Of a stretch of 64,000 bases of DNA, positions 3,361 through 48,365 are shown one piece after another. Position numbers and translations under genes: made by a program. The stretch is from the IMG/VR virus record IMGVR_UViG_3300021310_000004, one strand, 5' to 3'. Positions within the stretch are counted from its first letter, which is position 1, and every line of letters begins with the position of its first letter. This DNA comes from a virus (Duplodnaviria; Heunggongvirae; Uroviricota; Caudoviricetes). The notes below the pieces were generated by a model. The model was not told where the DNA came from. It did no database searches and saw only the letters and a list, made by a program, of their open reading frames with translations.

Positions 3361-3594
3361 ATGACACTTTTGCGAGAAGAACGGGTAAAAGAACTGAGAA
3401 AAGCTTATCCTGCCGGCGCGGAAGTTCGTCTTAAAAAGATGAACGATACGCAGGCGCCGCCAATTGGTACCATTGGTACTGTATACCATGTTGATGATGC
3501 CGGTACCGTTCATATCCACTGGGACAATGGCAGCTCCCTTGGCGTTGTCCCTGGCATTGATGAGATTGAACTCGTCCCAAAAGAAATGGGGTGA
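3361..3594 (+). CDS. DUF4314 domain protein
   Basis: GGAGGA RBS; conserved DUF4314-like motif ...DTQAPPIGTIGTV..VDDAGT..WDNGSSL. Confidence 0.6.
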   Translation: MTLLREERVKELRKAYPAGAEVRLKKMNDTQAPPIGTIGTVYHVDDAGTVHIHWDNGSSLGVVPGIDEIELVPKEMG

Positions 3595-3598
3595 TAAT

Positions 3599-4537
3599 AT
3601 GCTATCAAATCGTATTCGTATTGATATCCCGGACCTACCAGAATATGCATATGCATACTTTGATCAGCTCGAATTAAGTGATAAGACCGTTCACGCGTAT
3701 GCCGGTGATATTCGTATGTTTTTTGAGTTCCTACTGGTACATAAAAAACTAGACTCCTATCTCGAGGTAACACCAGCTGTTCTAAATACCTTGCGGCCAT
3801 ATGATGTGCTCCAGTATTTAAAGTTCTTACGAGACGGAACCTTAAAAGACGGTCGCATTATAAATGAATCCGACAGTTGTCGCGCCAGACGGCTCTCTGC
3901 TCTTCGAAACTTTATGCAGCATCTTATGCTGGAAGGTATTATGGACCAGAACGTGGCACGTCTTGTGGATCCACCAAAGAACGTTCACAGGAAGAAGAAA
4001 ATCGTATCCGACGATAAGATCCAGGCGATGCTTGATAATATTGATTCCGGAGTTGGTACCGAGCGGCAACAGGCCCTGCGGGAACGGTCGAAGCTTCGGG
4101 ACCGGGCAATTGTGCTCACCTTTGTTATGACGGGCATTACTATGTCAGAGCTTGTAAATCTTGATGTTCAAGATATTGATTATAAAAATAAGACCATCCA
4201 AGTCGTACGAAAAAACGGAACTATTGATGTACTACCAGTTCCGGATGATGTTATTCATGCGATTGATGATTACGTGAAAAACGAGCGATTCTGGGAGGAC
4301 GGCAACTTCGCACTATTTATCGCGAGCCGATTGAAAAACCATCATAGATTGTCCGTCAATGGGGTCAATGATGTATTAAAGCGATTTAGTACGGATGATG
4401 GGACCGGCAAGCATTTAACAGCCGCCGATTTGCGACGAACATATGGTGCCAATTTGCTTACTAAGACAAACGATCCTTGGGAAGTCGCAAAGAAGTTGGG
4501 CCATAAAGATGTAAAAACGGTAGAAAACTATTATTAG
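3599..4537 (+). CDS. tyrosine site-specific recombinase (XerD/integrase family)
   Basis: C-terminal catalytic region ...LRRTYGANLL...LGHKDVKTVENYY (R..H..R..Y signature); N-terminal SAM-like core-binding domain. Confidence 0.8.
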   Translation: MLSNRIRIDIPDLPEYAYAYFDQLELSDKTVHAYAGDIRMFFEFLLVHKKLDSYLEVTPAVLNTLRPYDVLQYLKFLRDGTLKDGRIINESDSCRARRLSALRNFMQHLMLEGIMDQNVARLVDPPKNVHRKKKIVSDDKIQAMLDNIDSGVGTERQQALRERSKLRDRAIVLTFVMTGITMSELVNLDVQDIDYKNKTIQVVRKNGTIDVLPVPDDVIHAIDDYVKNERFWEDGNFALFIASRLKNHHRLSVNGVNDVLKRFSTDDGTGKHLTAADLRRTYGANLLTKTNDPWEVAKKLGHKDVKTVENYY

Positions 4538-7127: not shown

Positions 7128-7535
7128 TTACTCTCCAAAATCCGTTCCGGCGATTTCCTTCGCCCTGATTTTATACGCTTCAATTGCCTCGTAATCCGTG
7201 TATTCTTCGCCACAAAAACAATGTTCCAATGGGAACCTTATGAGGTCTTCTAATGTCTTGATCTCGTCGCAATATTTCTTCGTTTGAGCTTCGCACTCTA
7301 GCTCATATGTCTTAATTGCCTCGTCTTTTGTTCTAAAAATACAATCTTCCGTGACATAAGCTGTTCCATGATTATCAATTGAATGAACAACGTACACTGG
7401 CTCCTTGTTCTGAGGATCATCTGGTGGGACGTAGTAATCGACAATCTTTGCCTTTTCTACCGGAATCCAAGTCGTTCTAATATAAACAACGTCACCAATT
7501 TTGTACTTTCTATTCGTTACCGCTTTATCGCTCAT
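7128..7535 (-). CDS. hypothetical protein
   Basis: ORF, translationally coupled to downstream gene. Confidence 0.45.
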   Translation of the reverse strand: MSDKAVTNRKYKIGDVVYIRTTWIPVEKAKIVDYYVPPDDPQNKEPVYVVHSIDNHGTAYVTEDCIFRTKDEAIKTYELECEAQTKKYCDEIKTLEDLIRFPLEHCFCGEEYTDYEAIEAYKIRAKEIAGTDFGE

Positions 7536-8407
7536 TACTGTGCTCCGTATAGGATTCTTGCTAACTCGGAATTCTTATCCAGGATCAATGTCTTATTGTC
7601 GCCGGCCATAGCCTTCATAGCGTCCAAGCTTCTTTGATAATTGTAAAAGTCCGCTTTGGATTCATCGTTATAAGCATCAGACAAGATTCGCATATACTCT
7701 GCTTCACCCTCTGCAACTAACTTCGCCGCATCACTCTTTGCAGCTGCCTTTGTAATAGAAACCTGCTTATCCGTTTCGTTGCGGATCTTCTTTGCTTCTG
7801 CCTCACCCTTTGCGGCGTAGCTTGCGGCAATATTATTTCGTTCTGAAATCATACGCTCGTATACAGCAGCCTTATTATCGTCCGGCAGATCTAACGCCTT
7901 GATTTCAGCAGACTTAATCTCAATACCATACTGATCAATATCAGAATTTGCCTCGTCTGTGATCATCTTTGTAAGAGTATCGCCTCTTGCTGCAATGATT
8001 TCATCCTGTGTCATTGAAGAAATCGTATTTTTGGTTGCGTTATAGACGTTCGCCTCAATACGCTCTTCTGCTCTTGCTTTTACACCAACAAGTGTACGAT
8101 AATAAGCCACCGGATCCTTAACAGTCCAAATGACAACGTCATCCGCAATCATAGACTTCTTATCGGATGTGATTACGTCACTGGTCGGAATATCGTACAA
8201 ATTGTCACCGGTATAAATCTTAGCTACGCTCTCAATAAATGGCGTCTTAAAATGCATGCCGGTATCTTCTACCGTGTATTTTGCCTTTCCAAGATGAAGA
8301 ACAATAGCAGTTTCATTTGGCTTTACTGTGTAGGCGGATGCTGTAAACAAGATGAGTCCAGCAAAAAACGCTACACCAAAAAGAATCAAGGATAATACCT
8401 TTTTCAT
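7535..8407 (-). CDS. SPFH/band-7 domain membrane protein, HflC-like
   Basis: N-terminal TM helix; band-7 core (ETAIVLHLGKA... PVAYY); C-terminal coiled coil. Confidence 0.6.
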   Translation of the reverse strand: MKKVLSLILFGVAFFAGLILFTASAYTVKPNETAIVLHLGKAKYTVEDTGMHFKTPFIESVAKIYTGDNLYDIPTSDVITSDKKSMIADDVVIWTVKDPVAYYRTLVGVKARAEERIEANVYNATKNTISSMTQDEIIAARGDTLTKMITDEANSDIDQYGIEIKSAEIKALDLPDDNKAAVYERMISERNNIAASYAAKGEAEAKKIRNETDKQVSITKAAAKSDAAKLVAEGEAEYMRILSDAYNDESKADFYNYQRSLDAMKAMAGDNKTLILDKNSELARILYGAQ

Positions 8408-8419
8408 AACTTCCTCCTT

Positions 8420-9343
8420 TTACTGTGCAAATGTATCAAGTGGTAACATCGTCTGAGTTGACCCGTCAGTAACAATTACCTTTAGGCCTGGCAAAATGCT
8501 TTCCATTGTCTCGTAAAACATTCTCTTCTTCGTAATGGCCGGATACTTCTGGTACTCTTCATAGGTTTGATTAAAACGAGCAACCTGACCTTCGGCCTCA
8601 GCAATACGCGCCTGCTTCTTACCCTCTGCCTTCTGTCTAATTTCGTCAGCTTTTGCTTCAGCTGCAGGAATCTGTTCATTCTGGTACTGTAATGCATTGT
8701 TCTTTGCAGTATCGGCGCCCTGCTTTGCAGTTTCGACCGCTTTAAATGCAGCCTTGATTTCGTCTGTAGGTGGCTCAGAGTCCTGAATCGTAATATTCAC
8801 TACTGAAAGACCAATGTCTCGCTGCTTTAAGGACTTGTTAATTGCCTCCTTAATATCCGCCTGAATCTTGTTCTTACCGGTGGTCATCGCTTCATCCACA
8901 GTATAGTTGGATACAACCGTACGAATATCCGCCAACGCGGTGTTTACCATGATTTCTTCCGGTTCCTTCGAGTTATAAAGGTACGCAACTGGATCCGTAA
9001 TGCGATACTCCAGGTAAAAATCGATATTGAGCAAGTTAAAATCGCTCGTAATCATAATGCCGTTATCGGCATCTTCTACATTTTGGCCATCGTCAGATAT
9101 TTCGTATCCAAGTCCGGTACCATGTGTAGTAATATCAACCTTCTTCACCTTTTGCCATGGAGCTTTCACATGAAGACCGGCAGTATCTACTCGAAGGACT
9201 TCACCAAACTGCGATACGACAGCATTCTGTGTCTCTTTTACTCCATAAAAAGTGCGGAAAAGACAGATAATGGCGAATAACCCTAATAAGCCAAAGATAA
9301 TCATCTTTCCAATTGTGCTTGGTTCAATTTCATAATCATTCAT
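8420..9343 (-). CDS. SPFH/band-7 domain membrane protein, HflK-like
   Basis: TM helix then band-7 domain (VVSQFGEV..., LEYRITDPVAYLY), coiled-coil tail; paired with HflC-like gene. Confidence 0.6.
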   Translation of the reverse strand: MNDYEIEPSTIGKMIIFGLLGLFAIICLFRTFYGVKETQNAVVSQFGEVLRVDTAGLHVKAPWQKVKKVDITTHGTGLGYEISDDGQNVEDADNGIMITSDFNLLNIDFYLEYRITDPVAYLYNSKEPEEIMVNTALADIRTVVSNYTVDEAMTTGKNKIQADIKEAINKSLKQRDIGLSVVNITIQDSEPPTDEIKAAFKAVETAKQGADTAKNNALQYQNEQIPAAEAKADEIRQKAEGKKQARIAEAEGQVARFNQTYEEYQKYPAITKKRMFYETMESILPGLKVIVTDGSTQTMLPLDTFAQ

Positions 9344-10576: not shown

Positions 10577-10610
10577 AATACGTATCATTGCACTACAATT
10601 TGTGACAAAA
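10577..10610 (-). promoter_or_regulatory. class A bipartite motif (TAATACGTATCATTG-N8-TTTGTGACAAAA) upstream of phosphoesterase gene
   Basis: 1 of 11 near-identical copies; functional sense is minus (TTTTGTCACAAA-N8-CAATGATACGTATTA). Confidence 0.5.
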
Positions 10611-19535: not shown

Positions 19536-20324
19536 CTACGGCCGCATATAGGACGGCATTAATCTAAGTTTATGTAGATTTGCACGATGCTTATGCTCGA
19601 TCAAATCAACTAGGTCCTCACTTATCGGGCATCTAGTTTCAGACTTAGCCTCGGATTCCTTCCAGATGATGTACGCATCTAGGTCATCATACGTGAATCC
19701 AAGATTGTCTTCATCGGTCTTTCCACACAGCCCGTCAGATGGGACCTTATGAACCAGATCCGCTGGAAGCTCAAGGTAATCACCAATGGCCCGGATGTCC
19801 GATACCAAAAAGTCCTGTAATACAGCAATATCACCTGCTGCATCGCCATACTTTGTGGAATATCCCACATAATCCTCGGACCGGTTGCAGGTATTTACTA
19901 CAAAGGCCGGAACATTAAAGCTCTGTGCTACTGCATACAATGTTGTCATACGGATACGAGGTGCAAGATTAATGATCTGCTGCTCGGTACGATTTACACC
20001 GGATACCTTTAGGGCCTTCTGGAAGGCCTTGTATGGGTCTAAAATGTTAACGGTAACACGTTCTATGCCTAACATATCACAAACTCGCATTGAATCGGAA
20101 ATATCACTTTGAATACCGTTCGGCATTAAAACACCAACTACACGTTCTTTTCCAATCGCTCTAACCAACAGAGCTGCAGCTACAGTCGAATCCTTACCAC
20201 CAGAGATGCCAATTACTGCCTTGGAATCCTCGGAGAACTGGTTGAACCAGTTCCTCAAGAAACCAATTAACTTCGGAGTTACATTTGTTACGTCGATACT
20301 CGTCATCACAAACCTCCTACTCAT
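19536..20324 (-). CDS. nadE: NH3-dependent NAD+ synthetase
   Basis: PP-loop GISGGKDSTVAAAL; family-typical length. Confidence 0.8.
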   Translation of the reverse strand: MSRRFVMTSIDVTNVTPKLIGFLRNWFNQFSEDSKAVIGISGGKDSTVAAALLVRAIGKERVVGVLMPNGIQSDISDSMRVCDMLGIERVTVNILDPYKAFQKALKVSGVNRTEQQIINLAPRIRMTTLYAVAQSFNVPAFVVNTCNRSEDYVGYSTKYGDAAGDIAVLQDFLVSDIRAIGDYLELPADLVHKVPSDGLCGKTDEDNLGFTYDDLDAYIIWKESEAKSETRCPISEDLVDLIEHKHRANLHKLRLMPSYMRP

Positions 20325-21525
20325 GATCCAAGCGCCACTTTAATGTACGCTGCAGATAATCTACATACTCAGCATCCTTGCACATGCACTTGCCCGGTGT
20401 ATCGCTGATTTTAGCTACCGGATGGCCATTACACTCGGTCGTCTTCATTACGATATTAAGTGCCGGTTCCTTCGTATCATTACTGATATAAGTTCCAATA
20501 CCAAATGCTACATTGATGCGGCTGTTGAAGTGATAGAACAATGCAGAAGCACGATCAAAATCCAAGCTATCACTGAACAATAAGGTCTTAGTCTTAGGAT
20601 CTACACCAAGAGCTTCGTAATGCTTAATCATCTTCTCGCCCCACTCATACGGATCACCAGAGTCGTGACGAACACCTGAGAATAAGGTCGCGAATGTAAG
20701 CTGAAAATCCTTTAAGAATACATCTGTGGTTACGGTATCGGTCAATGCGATACCATTCATAACACTGTACTCTTTAACCCATGCATCGAGTGCAAACCAG
20801 TTGGAGTATGCAGCATTGTGCTTATTATCACCCTGACCTACACACATGATATACTCATGAGCCATGGTTCCAACCGGTGTAATGCCGAACTTCTTTGCAA
20901 GGTACACATTGGACGTTCCAATGAAGTTAGAACTTACATTCTTGGTTGCTTCAATCAGTGCCTTAATAGCAAGTTCCTGTGCTTCTGCAGACAATCTACG
21001 ACGAAGTCCGAACTCAGAGAATGTACCAAGATACAAGGATTGAGCCTTCACGCGGTCACACTTTGCGGCCAAACGTTCCTTAAAGGAATCCAGCAGCTCA
21101 TCATAATCAAAGCCCATTCTAAAGTAGACCTCATTTACGATTGCAAGAGTTGGAATCTCATACATGGAACTGTTCAGCCAGGTACTCTTTGCCTCGATAG
21201 ACAAGCCACATTCTGCATCGGCACTAATCTCAAAATCCTCATATCGTGGATGCCACAAACGAAGATAATCGATGTAGTCCGGCTTCAGCCACTTGATCTT
21301 ACGCAGGTAACCCAATTCGTCCTCTGTGAACACGAGCGCACAATATGCACGAATCTGTTCCTTAATTTCCTCTACCATGTCCTTGGTAAAATGAACGTCC
21401 TTGTTACGGCACTTGAATGTCCAAGTGGTTGTGTATCCAGGGAACTGATGGTAAATTACCTGTCCCATGGAAAACTTGTATAAATCGGTTTCTAACAATG
21501 AATTGATAATCTGGTTACATTTCAT
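20317..21525 (-). CDS. pncB: nicotinate phosphoribosyltransferase
   Basis: colinear PncB motifs: LLETDLYKFSM, GIALTD, GVRHDSGDP, KTLLFSD, AFGIGT, ECNGHPVAKISDTPGK. Confidence 0.85.
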   Translation of the reverse strand: MKCNQIINSLLETDLYKFSMGQVIYHQFPGYTTTWTFKCRNKDVHFTKDMVEEIKEQIRAYCALVFTEDELGYLRKIKWLKPDYIDYLRLWHPRYEDFEISADAECGLSIEAKSTWLNSSMYEIPTLAIVNEVYFRMGFDYDELLDSFKERLAAKCDRVKAQSLYLGTFSEFGLRRRLSAEAQELAIKALIEATKNVSSNFIGTSNVYLAKKFGITPVGTMAHEYIMCVGQGDNKHNAAYSNWFALDAWVKEYSVMNGIALTDTVTTDVFLKDFQLTFATLFSGVRHDSGDPYEWGEKMIKHYEALGVDPKTKTLLFSDSLDFDRASALFYHFNSRINVAFGIGTYISNDTKEPALNIVMKTTECNGHPVAKISDTPGKCMCKDAEYVDYLQRTLKWRLDHE

Positions 21526-21581
21526 AATATTTATTCTCCTTTCTTATGTACCATTTTTATTTATCGATGTTAAATATGGTA

Positions 21582-22109
21582 CTATTTACGTCGGCGCCAA
21601 TTTTCATGTGCTTCTAAGAAATCCGGAGCAATCATATCGCGGTACTGATCCGTGTTCTCTCGAATCATGGTACCGGATACTTGAATCTTACTTCTATCCA
21701 ATAATACGAAGTTATGGTTCGGATAAACCTGCTGCAACTTCTCGATATAAGAGGCTTCGCCCGTGTACCAGGTATATTCTTTGGATTCGTCATTCGGATC
21801 TAGCCAAGCGTTACGAAAGAATTCTTTCCCCCAGATAGACCAAGCATCTACGGAAAATGTACCTGTTAATCCGATTTCATGATCGTCAACAATAGTAATA
21901 AAGACGTTCTTATCGTCATGATATCGTCTTAACATTAACTTCCATCGACCTTCAAACGGTAGGTACTCTTGTCCTCGGTCGCTATCATATCCGCATACAC
22001 CGATAACGATTCGATCATTCTCGTTCTTAGCTCTTTCAATCATTGATAAGTGGCCCTTGTGCAACGGGATAAAACACCCGAAGCACAGACCAATTCTTTC
22101 CTTACTCAT
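21582..22109 (-). CDS. nicotinamide/nicotinate-mononucleotide adenylyltransferase (NadM/NadR-type)
   Basis: GCFIPLHKGHL nucleotidyltransferase motif. Confidence 0.7.
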   Translation of the reverse strand: MSKERIGLCFGCFIPLHKGHLSMIERAKNENDRIVIGVCGYDSDRGQEYLPFEGRWKLMLRRYHDDKNVFITIVDDHEIGLTGTFSVDAWSIWGKEFFRNAWLDPNDESKEYTWYTGEASYIEKLQQVYPNHNFVLLDRSKIQVSGTMIRENTDQYRDMIAPDFLEAHENWRRRK

Positions 22110-22632
22110 TTACCACCTCAATATGACATGCCTTCATTGCCTGTAATGCCGTATTATGGCTCTCCTTGGTTACGCCGGCGCAACCTGCTGCATCTACGAT
22201 AATTCTCGTATTCGGTCTTGCTGCCTTGGCCAGCATGACATTGGAAATGACACAGATATCGGTACATACACCAACAAACTCGATAGACTCAAGTTCATAT
22301 GCGTAGTCAGCGAAGAAATCGCACAATTCCTTGGATCCGAATGTTTCCTTGTCAAACAAGTAATCTTCATCCACGTACGGCTTTAACTCATCAACGATCT
22401 CAAATCCTTCGCTTCCCTCAATACAATGCGGTACTGGAAGGTGCTGGCCTTCAATGGTATTCATGTAATCATCCTGGTGCATATCTCTTGTGAAGATAAT
22501 CAAATCTCCATCTTCAGTAGCCTGTTCCAGCTTCTTCTTAATGTACGGAATCACGGCAATCGCGTCCTCATTACGAAGCGCTCCGGTTGTGAAATCATTC
22601 TGCATATCAATTACTACTAACACTTTACTCAT
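22102..22632 (-). CDS. pncA: isochorismatase-family hydrolase, probable nicotinamidase
   Basis: VVIDMQNDF, catalytic Cys in VCTDICV; position within NAD salvage block. Confidence 0.65.
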   Translation of the reverse strand: MSKVLVVIDMQNDFTTGALRNEDAIAVIPYIKKKLEQATEDGDLIIFTRDMHQDDYMNTIEGQHLPVPHCIEGSEGFEIVDELKPYVDEDYLFDKETFGSKELCDFFADYAYELESIEFVGVCTDICVISNVMLAKAARPNTRIIVDAAGCAGVTKESHNTALQAMKACHIEVVNE

Positions 22633-22634
22633 CC

Positions 22635-23456
22635 CTAATTTCCTCCTACATATGTAAATTCAGTTGATTGTCTACCACTCGCCAAATCGGACTTTTTTAC
22701 GTTTCCGGTTTCGACGATTTTATGTTCTACGAGCCGCTTTAATGATGCCTTATAAATATCCTGGCCCATTACGGCCCGATATGTTGCTCGAAGTTCCGCC
22801 ATTGTAAATGTGGCCGGCACCAAACAGAACATGTTATCCGAATAATCAAATCCGGCTCGAAGCTTTTTCATCGCTTCAATTATTATTTCCACATGATCAA
22901 ACGCCAATTTCTCGTCCGATACTAATGTGGGAATGTAATTCTGGTACGTAAGTACGGAATTCTTAAACGACTTTTCCTTCAAACTGTACTTAATAGTGAC
23001 GTTCTTCTCATCGTTTCTTAAAATAAGCTCCGTATCTTTGAACACCAGATCAAACCATGCAGCATCTGCAGCATCGTCTTGACCAGTAACGTCTTCAAGA
23101 TTCGATACCAGTGCCATATAAGCGATACTCATTACCCACATACGAGGGTCACGTCCAGGTTTTGTGAATGTATAAATCTGATCCAAATAAGCTTTCTTTA
23201 AACCGGTTTCCTCATACAGCTCTCTTTGTGCCGCCTGAAACGCTGTTTCATTCTCTTCAATGAATCCGCCCGGTAGTGCCCAGCAATTCATATACGGGTG
23301 ATTTCCGCGTCTTATTAACAGGATTTTCAAATTGGTATAACCTGGAGCCATTCCAAGTACCAAGATATCTGTCGTTACGGATGGACGCTTATAATCGCCC
23401 GGATTATATTGCTCTAAAAACTCGGATTCTGTTAATCCATCTTTGTTACGAAGCAT
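22635..23456 (-). CDS. NUDIX hydrolase (ADP-ribose/NAD-metabolite pyrophosphatase-like)
   Basis: Nudix box GGFIEENETAFQAAQRELYEETG. Confidence 0.7.
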   Translation of the reverse strand: MLRNKDGLTESEFLEQYNPGDYKRPSVTTDILVLGMAPGYTNLKILLIRRGNHPYMNCWALPGGFIEENETAFQAAQRELYEETGLKKAYLDQIYTFTKPGRDPRMWVMSIAYMALVSNLEDVTGQDDAADAAWFDLVFKDTELILRNDEKNVTIKYSLKEKSFKNSVLTYQNYIPTLVSDEKLAFDHVEIIIEAMKKLRAGFDYSDNMFCLVPATFTMAELRATYRAVMGQDIYKASLKRLVEHKIVETGNVKKSDLASGRQSTEFTYVGGN

Positions 23457-34805: not shown

Positions 34806-34900
34806 AACGCCGGCCATAGGACTTGAACCTATATCAGGGACCATATAGTGGTTTGATCTCCAAGAGCCAGCATAAGCAATAGACTTTCGCCTTACCACAC
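34806..34900 (-). ncRNA. tRNA-like fragment / structured element (T-arm ATAGGTTCAAGTCCTAT, no matching acceptor)
   Basis: T-loop consensus without complete cloverleaf. Confidence 0.2.
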
Positions 34901-35420
34901 TACAACTATCTTTATTCGGCCACCACTCGCAAAGGCTGAACCACACCAACGTCTCGGCATAGCTTCTTTACGGCCATCCGTAAACGGACAGCTACCATGG
35001 ACGGGAATCACATTACCCGCAACGTTCACCAGACATTCAGCTATACTGTAAAGATCTGTTATTATCCCTTGAATATCATATCTTCGGAAACTGACATATG
35101 GCTACTTGCTCTTATCCTCCGTGTTATAGGCTTGTTGCCAAACCATCAAATCAAACGGACTTGTTTTGGTTTTCCCTACTGTTTGCACGATGACCAGTCG
35201 CCGCATATAGGGTTCTTCTCTTCTCGAGCGTCTATTGCGTCCGCCACTAAGGACAAAGCTTTAAGTAAAGTTGTATCGCAGCACTGCAAACCTCTTTTCC
35301 GTTTTACCGGATTCGCGAATATTTGTTACCAAATACCACACTCCTAAACGATCAACGTAATCCGTAGTTCGTTCGAAGACTAAGGTCTGCATCCATGCAC
35401 AGAGTCAGTGTCATACACAT

Positions 35421-35508
35421 GGTTATTGCTAGTGGAATTATTAGGATTCGAACCTAGATGCTAAACATCCTTGTTTTGCACCACCCACCAATAGAGCGAT
35501 AATCCCAT
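35421..35508 (-). ncRNA. tRNA-like element with 9-bp/4-nt-loop hairpin in place of anticodon arm
   Basis: acceptor GGGATTA/TAATTCC, T-arm TTCGAATCC, internal TGCAAAACAaggaTGTTTAGCA. Confidence 0.3.
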
Positions 35509-37097: not shown

Positions 37098-37190
37098 TCG
37101 GAGAAGTAGGAATCGAACCCACGCAGCGTAACATACGCAGTCGGCTCACTGCCGGCCCCCGTTTCCAATTACGGGAATATTCTCCAAAGG
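37098..37190 (-). tRNA. tRNA-like (about 90 nt), anticodon undetermined
   Basis: T-arm GTGGGTTCGATTCCTAC; D-arm CCCGTAATTGGAAACGGG. Confidence 0.3.
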
Positions 37191-37348
37191 AGGTGTCCGC
37201 CTGTAACGGGTAAGCCAATGTATGAAAGGAGGCGGCTTAGGTTGAATTTCACTGAAAAACTATTTTAATGTGACAGATAAACATTATAGAAATCGTAGAC
37301 AATTATCACTGGCAGAGATACTTGCATTCCTTGTTTATCATTACAATA

Positions 37349-41314: not shown

Positions 41315-41343
41315 TGATACCTCCTATTATATAATGGATCCAC

Positions 41344-41417
41344 GGGGACTCGAACCCACGACCCTACCGGTTATGAGCCGGTTGCTCGACCAATTGAGCT
41401 TTGGATCCATATGGCCA
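41344..41417 (-). tRNA. tRNA (CAT anticodon)
   Basis: perfect acceptor GGATCCA/TGGATCC; loop CTCATAA. Confidence 0.55.
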
Positions 41418-41452
41418 AGGGAACGTATCCTTCTTGACCTAATCTTATTAAG

Positions 41453-41690
41453 GCATGTTCGGCATAAAAGCTGCACATGCCTATATGATATCCGGCCGGG
41501 ATTGCACCGGCACCCTTGGAGAAAAGTGTACTGAGTCGTCCAACAATTGCATTGTCAACTGCACTCAACTTTATACGACGGATATCGCACCAATGTCTCC
41601 GGACTTCGTATAGTCCCACCAGTGGATCCACTTTACATACGGTAGATGGATCAGACGCTCTCGTCATAGCAGAGATTTACGCTCCGCTAG
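41453..41690 (-). ncRNA. conserved structured block A, copy 1 (about 235 nt); second copy at 44305-44527
   Basis: about 85% identical copies with shared core CTATATGATATCCGNCCGGGATTGCACCGGCACCCTTGGAGAAAAGTGTACT. Confidence 0.4.
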
Positions 41691-41981
41691 AGAAATGAAT
41701 GTGCCAGGAATCGAACCTGGATCCGAAACGGCGAAGCCGCTTGTACTCCCATGAGTGTCACATCCAATGTATTTAATAAATGTGATCTATGAGCCACTCA
41801 GTAGCTCCAAGAGCCAAGATACTCGGAATCCCCAATAACAAGTACACCTTCGTAAAAAGGACAAGAGGTAATCCAAGAAAGAGTCCAACCATGATGAATA
41901 CAATGTAGAGTTCTATATAGAATTCGATATACTTCTCCATAATCGTCCTTCCTAATAGGATAAATAGTTATATCTCCAAAG

Positions 41982-42074
41982 GAGAACGGATAAGGGAGGA
42001 ATCGAACCTCCGACCATCAGGTACTATTATTGACCTAAGTGCTGCCAACTTACATCTATCTTATCCATGTTGAC
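41982..42074 (-). ncRNA. tRNA-like element (perfect acceptor GGATAAG/CTTATCC, T-arm GGAGGTTCGATTCCTCC) with non-canonical anticodon arm; copy 1 of block B start
   Basis: read directly; duplicated at 44643-44735. Confidence 0.35.
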
Positions 42075-42301
42075 CGGTAGTGCCCAACGGTCGTTGCGTT
42101 TCGTGTGGTTGCAGCCCACTACTTTGCTTTCCCTCAGCCAGGCTCTGCAAAGCCCCAATAGGACGACACTATCACGTTACTTGCAATATGTACTCCCTAG
42201 AGCCGCCTTTTGGGACATGGTGGTGGGCTAATCCACATAACATATTACAAGCCTTTTAGGTGCTAACCTCGGACAACTTTTACGTCATATCCGTTTGACG
42301 A
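42075..42301 (-). ncRNA. conserved structured block B, copy 1 (about 230 nt); second copy 44736-44958
   Basis: about 90% identity between copies; no ORF conserved. Confidence 0.4.
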
Positions 42302-42425
42302 CGTGGAAACGAAGGGATTCGAACCCATACCGGACTTATTGTATCTATCTGTGCACCGATATTTTGATACAATAAGGAGCCTTCTTACAGATATTGTCTG
42401 CTGTTCTACCACTTGAACTACGTTT
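42302..42425 (-). ncRNA. tRNA-like element with giant extra arm (11-bp stem CTTATTGTATC/GATACAATAAG) between anticodon and T arms
   Basis: perfect acceptor GGAAACG/CGTTTCC, D-arm GTTC/GAAC, T-arm GGGTTCGAATCCC. Confidence 0.35.
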
Positions 42426-42583
42426 CCATATTCGCACCATACAGAGGCTCCTATTGGTAGCTTACTATGGCACTTTGCATTTGTTCTAATTTACGAACTA
42501 CTTCTTTAGCGCGTTTTTACGTAGCGATAATGCACGTACCGGCTACGGCTTAATCCTCGCATCATACGATATGCGATTGAGCG

Positions 42584-42656
42584 TGAATGATAGGAGGTTC
42601 GAACTCCTGGCCACCGGATTAAAAGTCCGGTGCTCTACCAACTGAGCTAATCATCC
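42584..42656 (-). tRNA. tRNA-Lys(TTT), second copy
   Basis: loop CTTTTAA. Confidence 0.6.
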
Positions 42657-42837
42657 ATATGTATCCTTGAAACTCCCTTTGGCCTCCGGCCCTGATCCAG
42701 AACTAAGGATACAATACACGGTGCTGATCAATGACGAATAGAATGATACAGGCTTGTTACCGTATATAGTTTTTCGTATTGGCTTACTGAAGCAAGATTC
42801 GTCTTTTATCCAGTGCTTCATGCAATACTAGGAAGAA

Positions 42838-42925
42838 TGGACTCAGTGGGATTCGGACCCACATTCGCGAGTGTTCGCTCTTTCATCTTAAACACTTAAG
42901 ATGGCTTTTCCTTTTAAGCTATGAA
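42838..42925 (-). ncRNA. tRNA-like element with 8-bp/4-nt-loop hairpin replacing anticodon arm
   Basis: T-arm GTGGGTCCGAATCCCAC; ATCTTAAGtgttTTAAGAT. Confidence 0.3.
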
Positions 42926-43464
42926 TCCATGTGCGGAACCTACCCACTTCTCCGCTGTGCGAATCATCAGGTCAACCAGGTCAACACTGTCCAACAACCA
43001 CCGCGCGGTATCCGCAGAACCAACAGTCCACGGGCCGCCTCGCACCCCATTTCAAATCGGCCACTAAAGCAGGACCTCTCTGTAAATAAACCCCGGCTTT
43101 ATCGAAATATCGAATGGTGCCGGAAACCATATATAGGCACGTTCACAATAAGGATTCGCCATGGCTCGATTCGTTACTAATTGCTTCAACAGCTGACGTC
43201 TACACCGATACAAAGCAACGTTTACACCTTCTCTCAACGAAGGCTAGAAGATCTACCACATATGAACAAAAGCCTAAATAGATGCCTTTGTCTCGAACAT
43301 ATCTCTTTAAAGCTACGTCTTAAAGAGAGCAGCCTATACCTGCCGACACCTACTGGTATGATACCTATCTATGCGTCCATCTCGTACGACGCAGGCATCA
43401 TACATACCACCTGATCTTATTTGTTTGTGCAGTGCTATACTGCTCGGAGTCCTGCTCCGCATAG

Positions 43465-43600
43465 CCTCTGACGGACTCGAACCGACAACCTTCTGTCCAA
43501 GGCATATTTTCCCGACTTAATGTACACTCCATCGGTACTTCTATCTTGCCCCTGGACTTGCTCCAGCCAATTAAGCTAAGAGGCTACAAGTGGGCCGGGT
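43465..43600 (-). ncRNA. tRNA-like element with about 52-nt insertion between anticodon-stem halves (mini-intron-like)
   Basis: acceptor GCCTCTT/CAGAGGC, D-arm, T-arm GTCGGTTCGAGTCCGTC; GTCCAGGGGC...GCCTTGGAC pairing. Confidence 0.3.
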
Positions 43601-43728
43601 AGGATTCGAACCTACGATACATACAGACTTTTACAGCTGATATTACATCTGCGCCCTGTGCCTGCTCGGGTACCGACCCATATCCGGATTTTTTGTACAG
43701 GTATCCGGGAACCTGCTGCATAATCTGC

Positions 43729-44274
43729 TTAGAAGTACTTCTTGTAAAGATCCTCAACAAACGGAACCTTGATCTCTTCGTATCTAAGTGCGCGTAATGC
43801 TGCCATTAAGAACATTAAGAACTCAAACCAGTTACATACGGTACGTAAGATAGAAAGCAAACTATTGATTGCGCCAAAGTATACGCTGATACCGATTGTG
43901 CTAAGTAAGCTTGAAATCACGCTAAAGGTGTCGCCTGGAAGTTCAAGCACCTTGTAGAATACGGAAAATACGATTGATAACATCAAAGACTTAATTGTGG
44001 CGCTTGTGATGTACTCGTTCTTCTCAATCAAAAGAGCATATCCTAAGATCAAGAGCAGCGGTACGTAACCACCAAAGTATCCGCAAATAAATGCGAAAGC
44101 TGCGATCAAACTAACACGAATTCCCTCTTTGGTTCTTGGAATTCCAGCACCATTGAAGTTAGAATCTTTACCGAAAGACTTCACTTCCTGCATTGTCTGA
44201 TTAATAGTGTCCTTTGCCGCGTTACCAACGCTGTTTGCCATGTTCTGCATGGTCTGCTGATTGTTTTCTGTCAT
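43729..44274 (-). CDS. membrane protein (hypothetical) embedded in the ncRNA island
   Basis: ORF with TM helices. Confidence 0.45.
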   Translation of the reverse strand: MTENNQQTMQNMANSVGNAAKDTINQTMQEVKSFGKDSNFNGAGIPRTKEGIRVSLIAAFAFICGYFGGYVPLLLILGYALLIEKNEYITSATIKSLMLSIVFSVFYKVLELPGDTFSVISSLLSTIGISVYFGAINSLLSILRTVCNWFEFLMFLMAALRALRYEEIKVPFVEDLYKKYF

Positions 44275-44304
44275 TTAATTACTCCTCTCTAGTTTATTAA
44301 TATT

Positions 44305-44527
44305 AAGACGTGCACAGTTTTATGCCGAACATGTCTATATGATATCCGACCGGGATTGCACCGGCACCCTTGGAGAAAAGTGTACTAAGCCAGTTCAACG
44401 ACGCTCGACTTTATACGACGGATATCGCACCAGTGTCTCCGGACCTCGTATGGTCCCACCAGCGGATTCACTTTAGCGGTAGTGAATCAAACGCTTTCAT
44501 CATTGCAGGTTTTTGTTCCCGCTAGAC
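44305..44527 (-). ncRNA. conserved structured block A, copy 2
   Basis: see copy 1. Confidence 0.4.
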
Positions 44528-44642
44528 ACAAATTCGGGCCTCACCTCAGCTTGTCCCTATAAAGCTCTCGTAGGGCTTTGTTCTTGCAAACAGTACTACA
44601 ATTTGCGTTTCCGCTCAGTACCGAGGTCGCAATGCCTCCTGG

Positions 44643-44985
44643 GCGAAAATGGATAAGGGAGGAATCGAACCTCCGACCATCAGGTACTATTATTGACCTA
44701 AGTGCTACCAACTTACATCTATCTTATCCATGTTGACCGAAAGTGCCCAACGGTCGTTGCGTTTCGTGTGGTTGCAGCCCACTACTTCGCTTTCCCTCAG
44801 CCAGGCTCTGCAAAGCCCCAATAGGACGACACTATCACGTTACTTGTAATACGTACTCCCTAGAGCCGCCTTTTGGGACATGGTGGTGGGCTAATCCACG
44901 TAACATATTACAAGCTTTTTAGGTGCTAACCTCGGACAACTTTTACGTCATATCCGTTTGACAGCGTGGAAAGAGGGGGATTCGA
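44643..44985 (-). ncRNA. block B copy 2 (tRNA-like element + about 225-nt conserved RNA)
   Basis: see copy 1. Confidence 0.4.
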
Positions 44986-45085
44986 ACCCACATGCCGTCT
45001 CCTATTACTATTGTTGCAACAATAGTAATATTCATCGACGTTGACTTGCCATATCGTCCATCTTTCCATGTCCGGCTTTTTGATA
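44986..45085 (-). ncRNA. tRNA-like element with perfect 20-nt palindromic extra hairpin (ACTATTGTTGCAACAATAGT)
   Basis: acceptor GGAAAGA/TCTTTCC, T-arm GGGTTCGAATCCC. Confidence 0.3.
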
Positions 45086-45252
45086 ACGGGAAGCCGGAAA
45101 CCCAAGCAATACTACCGGGTATCACCGATAGTCCAGAATGATTGGCACCCTGACCCTTACCTAAAGAAAGTTCCTTCATATAGAAGGCGGAAAACTGAGT
45201 AAGTGGGTTACCTCGTTTTGGCGTTTCCTATACATCAATTACTGTTCAAATA

Positions 45253-45291
45253 TAATACGTATCATTCGATGCCGTTTTGTGACAAAATAAT
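45253..45291 (-). promoter_or_regulatory. class A bipartite motif driving the ncRNA island
   Basis: TAATACGTATCATTCG-N6-TTTTGTGACAAAATAAT. Confidence 0.45.
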
Positions 45292-45350
45292 ACGAAATTT
45301 TTTTGAATGAACGGAAATCAGTCAATCCATTAGGCTGCTTGGCATTTCTC

Positions 45351-46178
45351 CTATAGCTTTAACAAATCCATTTCAAAATCCGGAAGGTTCCACTTTCTTT
45401 TTATTTCAAGAATACTATCGATGACTTCCAATCGTGATTCCATTGGCAGCGTTGCAATTAAGGATAACATCCGCTCCGAAATGTAAAACCGCTCGCTTGT
45501 CATCTTATCTTGGCAAATAATCTTCTCGGCCGTGTATTCGGGAGCGTTTAATTCCACTTCAGCCATCTCAACGAATTTATCTTTGATACAATCCCGGTAC
45601 AGTAGTGTACAAATAACGTCTGCTCTTCCTTCTGCAAACTCACCATTTCCTACACCATCTGGTAAACCGAAACGATTTGCGTACTTCTCTAATGCTTTGG
45701 AAACAAAGTCCTCGATAAATAATTTATCTTCAAAACTACCGTTTCTATCGACGATTGACTTGGCATTTTTAAGATCCGCTATCAGATGCGATTCTACGTC
45801 CTGATAAGATTCCTCGGAATATTTTGCCTTAATGGAATTATTTTCTGCGTACGTATTACATACGCTCACCATTTCGGCCAATTGTCTCGCGTAAGCATTT
45901 CTAACTACTGTAGGAATGATAGTAAATACCATTGATATCACCAAAAATACGATGCCCACTACCCAACATATTTGTAATGATTCACGCTCTACTTCTTTAT
46001 ACCAAAATAACAAGTTTAGTATTGCAGCCAGAAAACCAGATACACTGATTGAAGCAGTTAGAAACGACACGTATTTGTAAGAATCGTCTGAATTGGTATG
46101 AATATGATTGGTGATCGCTCTTGCATCTGCAATAGATAGTTTTGGATGCTTTTTTACAAGTTTCTCTGTTAATTTCAT
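45351..46178 (-). CDS. membrane protein (hypothetical)
   Basis: GGAGG RBS; TM helices. Confidence 0.45.
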   Translation of the reverse strand: MKLTEKLVKKHPKLSIADARAITNHIHTNSDDSYKYVSFLTASISVSGFLAAILNLLFWYKEVERESLQICWVVGIVFLVISMVFTIIPTVVRNAYARQLAEMVSVCNTYAENNSIKAKYSEESYQDVESHLIADLKNAKSIVDRNGSFEDKLFIEDFVSKALEKYANRFGLPDGVGNGEFAEGRADVICTLLYRDCIKDKFVEMAEVELNAPEYTAEKIICQDKMTSERFYISERMLSLIATLPMESRLEVIDSILEIKRKWNLPDFEMDLLKL

Positions 46179-46925
46179 AAAAACCTCCATTCTAGAATAG
46201 CTCTTAGGTCAGCCGGCCACACATTTTAACCGCAAAAATACTGTCGGTTGGTATTTGTTTCCAAAAACCGGAACGTGGGGAATTGAACCCCATTCCAAGG
46301 ACATGCAACCTTGAAAAGTACCGCTCGCCAGGCAGACGTACGGAGAAAGGAGTTATAATACCCGTACATCAACGAAACTATCACAAACATCGCGATTTCT
46401 CGCGAGTGGACTAGACGGGAGTCGAACCCGTGTCCGAAATAGTTACTAATTAAGAGTCTTAACGCTGTTGGGAGCGAAGAAAATCTCGCCTGATCCACCA
46501 CCTGTTTTCGTACCGCCAAAGCAGGAAAGATAATTGTGGTTTCGTCTTTTGAACCTTACAGAGTACCAAACTCCAATCTATCTGTAAGACAGGCGTTTTT
46601 CATGTCGAAGCTATCTAGTTATTAAACTAGGCAGCAACTGCCATAGGACGTACATTAGATCTTGCGTCTAATTTTAAGTGATCACCGTAACGTGGTATAT
46701 CAATTCCGAGCGAACTCTTAATATTCACTACCCCGTCGAAACCATTACTAGCCCAGAGGAGGACCGCCTATTACGGGTAAGTTCCAACAAAGGAACTTAG
46801 GTTGACTTTCACATTGTCAAAACAAAACCAAGCTCTTTCGAGCCAAATCATAGACGCAGGAAACGAACCTGCCGTCTCGAATCGATATATTCGGTGATAA
46901 TTCCGTTCCACATCGATTACAATAT

Positions 46926-46965
46926 TAATACGTATCATTGGACGTCATTTTGTGACAAAAAATCA
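46926..46965 (-). promoter_or_regulatory. class A bipartite motif
   Basis: TAATACGTATCATTGG-N7-TTTTGTGACAAAAAATC. Confidence 0.45.
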
Positions 46966-48246
46966 TAAATCCATATCCAGGCTTGGTTCTATCGCGTCAT
47001 ATTCTAGATCCGATTCAATTGAACTTCCAAGATCACTACCCACGGCCTGCTCATTTGATTCGGTCAATGCCGCCTCAATATTCGTGCTTTCGACCTCAAA
47101 CGAATGATCTGGCGCATTAAACTCTAACAGCCGGTCACAACCAACTTCTTTGGCCAGTTTCAAGCAGCCAAATACATCACGCGAATCCGTCGTTTTTATC
47201 ACGCACATATGACCTTGAGGATGAACAAAGAAATCTACATTCTCGGTCAATCCATATGATTCAAGCCGTTCTTTCGAGAAATCAATCTCCGGTACCAAAC
47301 TACGTAACTGAATCTCTTTCTTTTCTTGGTTCGTACACATCAATAGCTTTACGTTTGTACCACGAAATACAGACGTGTCCGCAATCTCGCTATCAAAGCT
47401 AAAAATTTCAACGTTCGGGCCATGAAGTCGTAACTCTTCCTTGATGTACGCATTAAGCATCATCTTCGTATGATTTTGCGTCTCTTTTTGCTGCTCGATA
47501 TTTGAAATTAGATTCTCGTTCTGGTTCGTTAATGCTGCTACCAATGGATTTAATTTTGTTGTTTCGTGTTCTTGCTCTAAGTACTGATTTGTGATAGCCT
47601 CAATGCCGTCTCTAGCTTTTGCGAACGACGCGTCATTTCCTTCTGGAATCGTAAAAGGCATCCATATTGGTACCATTGAACGTACGTAGTCAGACACAAT
47701 AGCCTCTCGATCTCCTGTCGGAAGATTACCATCTTTATCTGGAAGCAAAAATCTAGCCGGTACGGTTTCTTTGCCGGCCGTCGTATCCTTTACTTCGATT
47801 GGACGGAGTACAAAGTCACGAAACTGATTTTTAACATCCAACTTCGATTCACCATCACGCAACGTAAGTTTTCCAGACTCAATCCACGTATCTATAATCT
47901 TGTCGCCCCAGATTTCCCATACGAGCCCACACGCGGCCTTTTGATTTGGACCCGATTCATGCTCGTAGCATCTCGCACCTGGCTGATGATGGTCATATAA
48001 TCCGCCGCCAACATCAGCAACAACAATATTCGGATCCTTTAATGCAGCTAATATCGTGTTATCGTCTCTTGTTCTGAAAACCTTTATCTTAGGATTAATT
48101 TGCTTTAGTTCCCAGGCGGCCATAACATCATCTGCATGTGGAATTCCATCATGAACGAACATTTTGTTTGGAATCCGATTATCGTCCGGCGTCCAGTTTA
48201 CTTCTATAATTCCATACTTTTTGTTATACGTTTTGAGCACAGTCAT
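46963..48246 (-). CDS. MYG1/UPF0160-family metal-dependent hydrolase-like protein
   Basis: FVHDGIPHADDV and YDHHQ motifs typical of MYG1; class B motif 25 nt upstream. Confidence 0.45.
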   Translation of the reverse strand: MTVLKTYNKKYGIIEVNWTPDDNRIPNKMFVHDGIPHADDVMAAWELKQINPKIKVFRTRDDNTILAALKDPNIVVADVGGGLYDHHQPGARCYEHESGPNQKAACGLVWEIWGDKIIDTWIESGKLTLRDGESKLDVKNQFRDFVLRPIEVKDTTAGKETVPARFLLPDKDGNLPTGDREAIVSDYVRSMVPIWMPFTIPEGNDASFAKARDGIEAITNQYLEQEHETTKLNPLVAALTNQNENLISNIEQQKETQNHTKMMLNAYIKEELRLHGPNVEIFSFDSEIADTSVFRGTNVKLLMCTNQEKKEIQLRSLVPEIDFSKERLESYGLTENVDFFVHPQGHMCVIKTTDSRDVFGCLKLAKEVGCDRLLEFNAPDHSFEVESTNIEAALTESNEQAVGSDLGSSIESDLEYDAIEPSLDMDL

Positions 48247-48365
48247 CCCCTCTCTTTCTTTTACAATCCTTTTAAATATGGGGATGCTAAATGGAAACAA
48301 AAAAAAAGAACCTATGCATAACGCACAAGTTCTGTTAATATCTTTATTTTCGAAATTGAAAATAT

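Follow-up and report, generated by a model that had tools for sequence, protein, structure and literature searches.

A phage RNA-gene island in which folded RNA blocks alternate with non-decoding tRNA-like elements

An island of RNA genes on a single strand

The window analysed here is a stretch of 64,000 nucleotides (nt) from IMG/VR record IMGVR_UViG_3300021310_000004 (Caudoviricetes). Its source is a large uncultivated phage, for which the sample names and the presence of a ROOL RNA suggest a rumen origin. Within it we describe an island of about 5.6 kb that consists for the most part of RNA genes, in which folded non-coding blocks are interleaved with tRNA-like structures (TLS), that is, cloverleaves without a decoding anticodon loop. 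The interval holds a transfer-messenger RNA (tmRNA), two genuine tRNAs, three open reading frames (ORFs) of 279, 181 and 55 amino acids, ten TLS and the folded blocks. All of these features lie on the minus strand, as do all of the tRNAs and tmRNAs called by ARAGORN in the window (36/36). The island was also found in independent assemblies from several samples (JGI, ENA and Logan), in which it is identical or almost identical (0-3 mismatches), and neither the island nor its internal duplications can thus be attributed to an assembly artefact.

The two genuine tRNAs are a tRNA-Lys (UUU) at 42584-42656, recognized by ARAGORN and by Rfam (73.4 bits), and a tRNA with the anticodon CAU (Met or Ile2) at 41335-41408, which scores 54.4 bits in Rfam and has the canonical loop CUCAUAA.

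tRNA-like elements keep the tRNA shape and lack a decoding loop

A scanner for a 5-bp T stem carrying a T-loop motif, with an adjoining 7-bp acceptor, returned 37 matches on the minus strand of the window and none on the plus strand, with about 0.1 expected per shuffle. When one T-stem mismatch was allowed, it recovered all of the elements that had been named in an earlier sequence-only reading of this DNA. Each of the ten TLS in the island folds as a cloverleaf with the D-loop GG and the T loop kept, so that the tRNA-like elements of that reading are borne out as real. The same reading gave no strand and overlooked the tmRNA, the two genuine tRNAs and the three ORFs. All ten have a 7-bp acceptor on a 5-bp T stem with a 7-nt T loop, some of them with one T-stem mismatch, and none has a 5-bp anticodon stem closed by a 7-nt loop with U33 and a purine at position 37. 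Instead, the loop measures 3 nt in TLS8, 4 nt in TLS5 and in a tRNA-like domain inside block A (see below), 5 nt in TLS6, 10 nt in TLS2 and TLS7 and 20 nt in TLS3, while a 26-nt palindrome takes the place of the anticodon region in TLS1 and, in TLS4, an inserted stretch of about 50 nt interrupts it.

The elements differ in how the anticodon arm is altered. In TLS1 (44967-45067; 29.6 bits as an Rfam tRNA, and found by both folding and the scanner) a perfect 26-nt palindrome forms a hairpin at 45005-45030. In TLS2 (44650-44729) and its twin TLS7 (41987-42066), both supported by folding, the anticodon arm gives way to a 6-bp stem topped by a 10-nt loop. TLS3 (43591-43679) has a CAGA/UCUG stem around its 20-nt loop, which Rfam treats as a 20-nt insert in a tRNA of 35.6 bits and which also folds. 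TLS4 (43462-43587; scanner and folding) accommodates its insert in an extended anticodon stem. TLS5 (42838-42928) is a clean cloverleaf (Rfam 38.4 bits, fold z-score -4.6) with an 8-bp stem, the 4-nt loop and a variable-arm hairpin, and TLS6 (42304-42427; Rfam 43.9 bits with a 55-nt insert, z-score -3.4) combines the 5-nt 'anticodon' loop with an 11-bp extra-arm hairpin. TLS8 (41696-41765; Rfam 26.4 bits, folding and scanner) has a 7-bp stem and the 3-nt loop. Of the unusual arms described in the sequence-only reading, the 11-bp hairpin (42304-42427) and the insert of about 50 nt (43462-43587) were recovered as such, and the palindrome was recovered with a length of 26 nt rather than 20. The suggestion that some units carry mini-introns found no support, as the inserts are 20-55 nt long and match no Rfam family, group I introns included, at E<=10.

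With these loops the TLS cannot decode, and the labels that ARAGORN attaches to them are therefore wrong: 'Cys' for TLS7, 'Tyr' for TLS2, 'Leu' (Leu-taa) for TLS3 and 'tRNA-???' for TLS5. Annotators of similar phages should be aware that the program gives amino-acid labels to three mimics and an undetermined label to a fourth. The inserts are not repeated anywhere in the window, which speaks against repeated mobile elements as their origin, and the presence of complete 5' halves speaks against the TLS being leftovers of integration. A 91-nt segment at 46262-46352 may be a degenerate tRNA-like remnant; it folds with a T arm GGGG-UUCAAUU-CCCC and a weak 4-bp acceptor, is matched by none of ARAGORN, Rfam and the scanner, and is regarded as uncertain.

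These mimics are not confined to one genome: another phage of the same JGI sample has, between its tRNA-Pro and tmRNA, a 128-nt tRNA-like element that had not been called and that contains a large insert (contig L031, 7801-7928).

Folded blocks lie between the tRNA-like elements

Two of the non-coding blocks, A and B, are present twice. Block B is duplicated together with the tRNA-like element that follows it, at 97% identity over 300 nt and 95% over 346 nt (41982-42327 against 44645-44990). Copy B2 (237 nt, 44730-44966) is 97-98% identical to copy B1 (42067-42303); both were given a consensus fold, which in B2 has a predicted closing helix GUUGUCCG/CGGUCAAC. The copies of block A, A1 (41445-41695) and A2 (44300-44527), show 86% identity by alignment column with a 14-nt indel, and 77% by blastn. 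The duplications reported in the sequence-only reading are thus confirmed, and its range of 85-90% identity suits block A by column and is too low for block B.

Block A is the best supported of the blocks as a structured RNA, with five predicted hairpins and a tRNA-like domain. In A2 the model comprises four 5' hairpins, the tRNA-like domain at 44341-44426 and a 3' hairpin, and the block ends about 25 nt ahead of the start codon of the 181-amino-acid ORF (ORF181); in A1 the domain lies at 41487-41586. The domain forms the 3' half of block A and consists of an 8-bp acceptor GAUAUCCG/CGGAUAUC, a T arm GCCGG-UGCAAUC-CCGGC (ending in CCGGU in copy A2) and the 4-nt loop. An 8-bp acceptor with a 5-bp T stem recalls tRNASec, an identity that we rejected in view of the missing UCA loop.

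The largest block (42929-43461; 533-537 nt depending on the boundary chosen, hereafter the 537-nt block) has 48% GC and a fold z-score of -2.4, and holds no start codon preceded by a ribosome-binding site. Across A, B and the 537-nt block, z-scores against shuffled sequences range from -1.3 to -2.6, compared with about 0 for coding controls and -1.35 for the ROOL RNA of the same phage. The array also contains spacers: 44528-44649 between TLS2 and A2 (z-score about 0), 42657-42837 between TLS5 and tRNA-Lys (181 nt, -1.6) and 42428-42583 between tRNA-Lys and TLS6 (156 nt, -1.3).

None of the blocks could be placed in a known family. The whole of Rfam 15 at gathering score gave no match for A, B or the 537-nt block, nor any homology of the three to ROOL or GOLLD. 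When the blocks were scanned alone at E<=10, B (copy B1, which is nearly identical to B2) had no match at all, A had a single 12-bit noise match and the 537-nt block a single 10-bit noise match; a scan of 5.1 kb gave a GP20-b match of 18 bits, far below threshold, at the 5' edge of B2. We therefore set aside group I and II introns, RNase P RNA, 6S RNA, T-boxes and riboswitches as Rfam identities for A and B, and the suggestion that the blocks might be guide RNAs or introns finds no Rfam family behind it apart from that 12-bit noise match. Homologs of A and B were likewise missing from INPHARED phages (megablast and blastn), and exact or degenerate patterns drawn from them were missing from IMG/VR, GTDB genomes and a JGI metagenome set that evidently does not contain even this phage. 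Searching 516 kb of other phage loci with nhmmer returned A and B matches only in the short ENA and Logan contigs L006-L008, which represent a single diverged relative.

TLS share the flank context of genuine tRNAs and abut the blocks

If the TLS are handled by the enzymes that mature tRNAs, their immediate flanks might be expected to resemble those of tRNAs. We compared 32 genuine tRNAs of the phage (10673-15675, 34156-36996 and 41335-42656) with 13 TLS. The dinucleotide AU occupies positions -2/-1 in 21 of the 32 tRNAs and 8 of the 13 TLS (background 0.106; p about 1e-13 and 1e-5, respectively), and YU follows the discriminator in 29 of the 32 tRNAs and 8 of the 13 TLS (background 0.124; p about 1e-5 for the TLS). 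Not one of the 45 elements encodes CCA, and the context of the genuine tRNAs is strikingly uniform. Bacterial RNase P prefers U at -1, and the RNase Z substrates of Firmicutes lack an encoded CCA and have a U-rich trailer. The TLS thus present the features of RNase P and RNase Z substrates, namely the acceptor/T stack, the D/T elbow, U at -1, no CCA and a U-rich trailer. The tRNA-like domain inside block A has neither the AU leader nor the YU trailer, and it was accordingly treated as part of the A RNA, in which it is more likely a built-in structural domain.

The boundaries of the blocks are similarly close to the tRNA-like elements. Most non-coding blocks have a TLS or tRNA within 0-5 nt of their edges. 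The predicted closing helix of B is flush with TLS ends, and that of the 537-nt block begins at the first base past TLS4 and ends 3 nt short of TLS5.

The same bracketing surrounds ROOL RNAs

The phage RNAs ROOL and GOLLD are abundant, have elaborate folds and have had their cage structures solved; we know of no established function or maturation pathway for them. The window contains a ROOL RNA at 34861-35444 (minus strand, 251 bits in Rfam), 6 kb from the island, whose predicted closing helix lies flush between two TLS that had not been called. The upstream element (35506-35433) ends one base ahead of the helix, its 'anticodon' loop is 4 nt long and its score as a tRNA is 26 bits; the downstream one (34871-34808) is a 64-nt mini-TLS that starts one base past the helix. 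The acceptor of the upstream element carries G1:C72, G2:C71 and G3:U70 together with A73, which we take to be the acceptor identity set for alanyl-tRNA synthetase.

This arrangement recurs elsewhere. Using a conserved ROOL motif, we collected 27 other ROOL loci from IMG/VR (L050-L076), which fall into five clusters at 90% identity. An upstream tRNA or TLS ends 0-2 nt ahead of the ROOL closing helix (200-203 nt ahead of the motif) in 23 of the 26 loci that have upstream sequence, and a tRNA starts 2-6 nt past the helix in 19 of the 27. A canonical tRNA-Met often occupies the upstream position, and other lineages have a non-decoding element there, marked by an 11-nt loop, a missing anticodon arm, a long hairpin or G33. 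The placement of blocks A, B and the 537-nt block is of this type, as they are located in a phage tRNA island between tRNA or TLS brackets on the same strand.

Earlier work placed ROOL and GOLLD near tRNAs and suggested that they are co-transcribed with them (PMC5737381, PMC12286853), described a pseudo-tRNA within GOLLD (PMC6582537) and noted that GOLLD linker regions carry tRNAs, with a suggested cage-linked role (PMC12286853). In the ROOL and GOLLD literature that we searched, we found no description of flush bracketing or of arrays of anticodon-less elements.

Conservation of structure in a diverged relative and between paralogs

ORF181 (43729-44274) is 82% identical at the nucleotide level to its counterpart in L006, from the diverged relative (L006-L008). 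The differences fall 21/11/71 at codon positions 1/2/3 (71 of 103 at the third), an excess showing that ORF181 is a genuine gene and that the two lineages are well separated. Over the same comparison, most of A2 together with the spacer up to the start codon (44481-44275) is identical at 207 of 207 nt, and identity is 96% for TLS4 including its insert and 94% for the spacer that follows ORF181. TLS2 and its L006 homolog share 84% identity; two double changes are compensatory, every pair is kept and the loop is reduced from 10 to 6 nt in L006. A TLS1-type element, 93% identical, occurs in L006 at another position, where the window has TLS3.

The two copies of block A allow a similar comparison within the island. 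A1 and A2 differ at 14-23% of positions and keep 65 of 65 predicted pairs, with four double changes, nine one-sided changes and none broken, whereas pairing falls to 31-42% in slid controls. As far as these alignments can tell, the conservation pattern points away from random decay.

Some modules appear to have moved. The duplication of B begins inside the upstream T arm, and shared T-arm sequences seem to serve as recombination joints at which modules are duplicated and swapped. The alignments also suggest that pieces of blocks have been reshuffled between lineages. After its TLS2-type element, L006 (1288-1422) has about 100 nt weakly similar to 43275-43372, in the 537-nt block of the window (nhmmer E about 0.009).

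A promoter-like motif reads into the island

A promoter-like 33-mer, TTGTCACAAAA-N-AATGATACGTATTA, occurs eight times in the window against 0 expected, each time on the minus strand, with copies ending at 10608, 16032, 37382, 40688, 45285, 46958, 53981 and 57046. Several copies lie upstream of RNA-gene arrays. The motif is unlike the sigma-70 consensus; a relative of this phage (L003) encodes an ECF-type sigma factor. Two copies, aligned with the others, point into the island as had been stated in the sequence-only reading: P1 (46926-46958) reads toward the tmRNA, and P2 (45253-45285) reads into the array of TLS and blocks. Inside the island, neither terminator-like nor sigma-70-like sites are enriched, and we infer that the array is co-transcribed from P2.

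The leader between P2 and TLS1 (45068-45252) has a fold z-score of -0.95, and that between P1 and the tmRNA (46755-46925) one of -2.9. Part of the latter (46757-46812) is about 70% similar, by blastn and alignment, to a leader at 37188-37252. That leader precedes an uncalled tRNA-like cloverleaf on the minus strand (37186-37098), downstream of another promoter copy. The two leaders have in common ...CAACCUAAG...CUUACCCGU.A.AGGCGG..CCUCCU.

A proposed processing array and its alternatives

On balance, we think it probable that the island is a co-transcribed array in which the TLS are cleavage marks for RNase P and RNase Z. In this proposal, P1 would serve the tmRNA, while P2 would drive a single precursor of about 4 kb holding the ten TLS. 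The RNase P of the host would cut at the 5' end of each TLS and, since no CCA is encoded, an RNase Z-type enzyme would cut past each discriminator. The pieces released would be block B (twice), the 537-nt RNA, the spacers, A1 as a free RNA and the two genuine tRNAs. The small ORFs would be freed as short mRNAs, ORF55 among them, and A2 would leave as the 5' part of the ORF181 mRNA. We infer that A, B and the 537-nt block would act as free folded RNAs, and propose that the TLS could lose decoding because only their shape was needed. A polycistronic precursor cut at tRNA-like punctuation had been put forward in the sequence-only reading, and it fits everything computed here (flanks, flush boundaries, the ROOL parallel and a single upstream promoter), with the cleavage itself standing as a prediction.

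Several observations count against this proposal. The AU leader is absent from 5 of the 13 TLS and the YU trailer from 5 of the 13, the 5' edge of A2 is not set by a TLS, and the fold z-scores are modest. The covariation statistics are weak, with 36-47 of 500 shuffles reaching the observed values; this is due to the small number of sequences available, namely two paralog pairs and one close relative. The complete identity of A2 next to an ORF that is 82% identical may mark a recent recombination boundary and need not be due to selection. The B copies, being 97% identical, do not allow the structure of B to be assessed and are uninformative on constraint, and B could be a recent duplication.

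Alternatively, the TLS may themselves be the products: non-decoding, CCA-tailed and perhaps aminoacylated mimics that, as decoys or sponges, occupy tRNA-binding enzymes of the host or defence nucleases directed at tRNAs, or that stay on folded RNAs as handles. We consider this unlikely, though worth keeping in mind, and it is compatible with a role as cleavage marks. It would explain why every arm except the anticodon loop is kept, the D-loop GG and the T loop among them, although RNase P and RNase Z could manage with less, and why the inserts are conserved, as in TLS4 with its 96% identity in L006. The presumed alanine identity set (G3:U70 with A73) on the TLS 5' of ROOL fits as well. Further encouragement comes from the tRNAs in GOLLD linkers and their suggested cage-linked role (PMC12286853). 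On the other hand, we identified no partner in defence or anti-defence, mimics that lack an anticodon loop would make poor decoys for anticodon nucleases, and flank context and flush boundaries are more simply read as signs of processing. A different possibility concerns block A, which could be a cis-acting 5' leader (a stabiliser, a translational regulator or a riboswitch-like sensor) of the downstream gene and not a free RNA. A2 does lie about 25 nt ahead of the ORF181 start with no TLS between them, so it would stay on the ORF181 mRNA, and this linkage is kept in L006-L008. However, A1 is followed by a tRNA and not by an ORF, so that block A as a whole has neither a constant 5' untranslated position nor a consistent class of downstream gene; distant ORF181 homologs (about 70% identity, L009-L013) have no A-like sequence, and no Rfam riboswitch matches. 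We judge a leader function rather improbable.

The remaining explanations are less plausible still. The island could be debris, with decaying tRNA pseudogenes and a recent segmental duplication leaving TLS, A and B without function. Identity of 95-97% between the B copies and their flanks is what a recent duplication would produce, and A and B homologs outside this phage lineage were not found. Yet decay would strike all arms, whereas here only the anticodon loop is lost, the stems still pair and substitutions are compensated; the non-coding parts are more conserved than codon positions 1 and 2 of the neighbouring gene; A1 and A2 differ at 14-23% of positions while keeping 65 of 65 pairs; and the same bracketing surrounds a bona fide ROOL RNA. 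Debris is accordingly a poor explanation in our view. That A and B encode small proteins seems hardly credible. A 61-codon frame is open in both B copies, the only one that they share, but it runs antisense to every neighbouring gene and each of its five nucleotide differences alters the encoded residue. The 14-nt indel between the A copies is not a multiple of three, and a chimeric query made of all A and B reading frames matched none of 5.8 billion proteins. The absence of a conserved ORF from the blocks, claimed at the outset from the sequence, therefore stands.

Should processing at the TLS be correct, it would provide a concrete maturation rule for ROOL-type RNAs: with the closing helix flush between tRNA-shaped elements, host RNase P and RNase Z would excise the RNA, and since the bracketing elements of this phage have given up decoding, the tRNA shape would be what is selected. 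It would also offer a search handle, in that any folded RNA lying flush between TLS in a phage tRNA island becomes a candidate new RNA; applied here, the rule returns A, B and the 537-nt block, a minimum of three candidates that fit no known class. Processing punctuated by tRNAs and RNAs from phage tRNA islands are already known, and what may be new are the candidate RNA classes and the candidate maturation rule for ROOL. A more far-reaching view, which we regard as speculative and rather doubtful, is that phages use their tRNA islands to turn out a broader and largely unseen range of folded RNAs, ROOL and GOLLD being just its largest members, with the TLS being CCA-tailed, possibly charged products (decoys, handles or cage cargo) and A, B and the 537-nt block representing new classes of functional RNA (ribozyme, assembly or sensor).

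The tmRNA, protein-coding genes and genomic surroundings

The tmRNA (46404-46754) was called by ARAGORN with the tag peptide ARSNVRPMAVAA and scores 82.7 bits against Rfam RF00023, for which the threshold is 47; it has the tRNA-like domain and the tag frame expected of the family. When its motif was used as an anchor for finding relatives, mostly unrelated bacterial tmRNAs were retrieved. Between the tmRNA and P2 lies the ORF of 279 amino acids (45351-46190), which has GGAGG upstream and no significant family match. ORF55 (41773-41940), with a weak match to phrog_17225, sits 46 nt past TLS7 and 7 nt ahead of TLS8.

Directly upstream of the tmRNA promoter is a gene for a putative exonuclease of the MYG1 family (UPF0160; 46963-48300, minus strand). 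The order MYG1-like gene followed by tmRNA also occurs in two relatives (L005 and L048), with a protein identity of only 38-40%. Among phages related through the MYG1-like gene, the island is absent from L003, L015-L020 and L047, while the sequences of L004, L005 and L048 stop just past the tmRNA. Isolated phages gave no match to the MYG1-like protein or to this ROOL. Type-P5 twister ribozymes (47-49 bits) were seen in three IMG/VR phage contigs that are only distantly related, each about 2 kb ahead of the MYG1-like gene (L016 7480-7554, L018 7692-7766 and L019 7864-7938).

Elsewhere in the window, a minus-strand cluster for NAD salvage (19536-23456) contains an NAD synthase (19536-20324), a NAPRTase (20317-21525) and an NrtR-like Nudix protein (22635-23456), and resembles the NAD-reconstitution sets that phages use in counter-defence. 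Isochorismatase and cytidylyltransferase-like families were also matched in the window, as were a tyrosine integrase (3464-4537, plus strand) and two adjoining SPFH/Band 7 proteins (7535-9343, minus strand).

Comparison with known systems

Punctuation by tRNAs is familiar from animal mitochondria, the stable RNAs of the phage T4 tRNA cluster, the tRNA-miRNA units of murine gammaherpesvirus 68 and MALAT1-mascRNA. In each case, RNase P and RNase Z recognize tRNA or tRNA-like folds within a long precursor and thereby free the RNAs on either side. Non-decoding mimics are used in the herpesvirus and in mascRNA, whereas functional tRNAs flank the stable RNAs of T4. The island described here differs from these systems in belonging to a bacteriophage and in having unclassified folded RNAs and small mRNAs as its cargo.

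The tRNA-like domain of block A has counterparts in tmRNA and in the bacterial Y RNA YrlA, where an acceptor/T-arm/D-arm mimic without an anticodon is likewise part of a larger RNA (PMC4201824). YrlA, however, has its ends in the stem opposite the acceptor, whereas internal strands make up the acceptor of A. Block A has no Rfam match to YrlA or tmRNA at E<=10, and among the 25 of 29 Pfam families listed for 53 proteins of the window there is no Ro60/TROVE.

The closest parallels are found in ROOL and GOLLD, which like the blocks of the island are folded non-coding RNAs encoded in phages beside tRNA genes, and the ROOL of this window shows the same flush bracketing by TLS. A, B and the 537-nt block match neither family in sequence or structure; A and B, at about 230-250 nt, are much smaller, and their flanking elements in this phage are non-decoding mimics. 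The GOLLD pseudo-tRNA of mycobacterial tRNA clusters also couples a degenerate tRNA to a large phage-derived RNA within an array (PMC6582537). That element is single and its expression was not detected (PMC6582537), whereas in the island ten intact anticodon-less cloverleaves alternate with different blocks.

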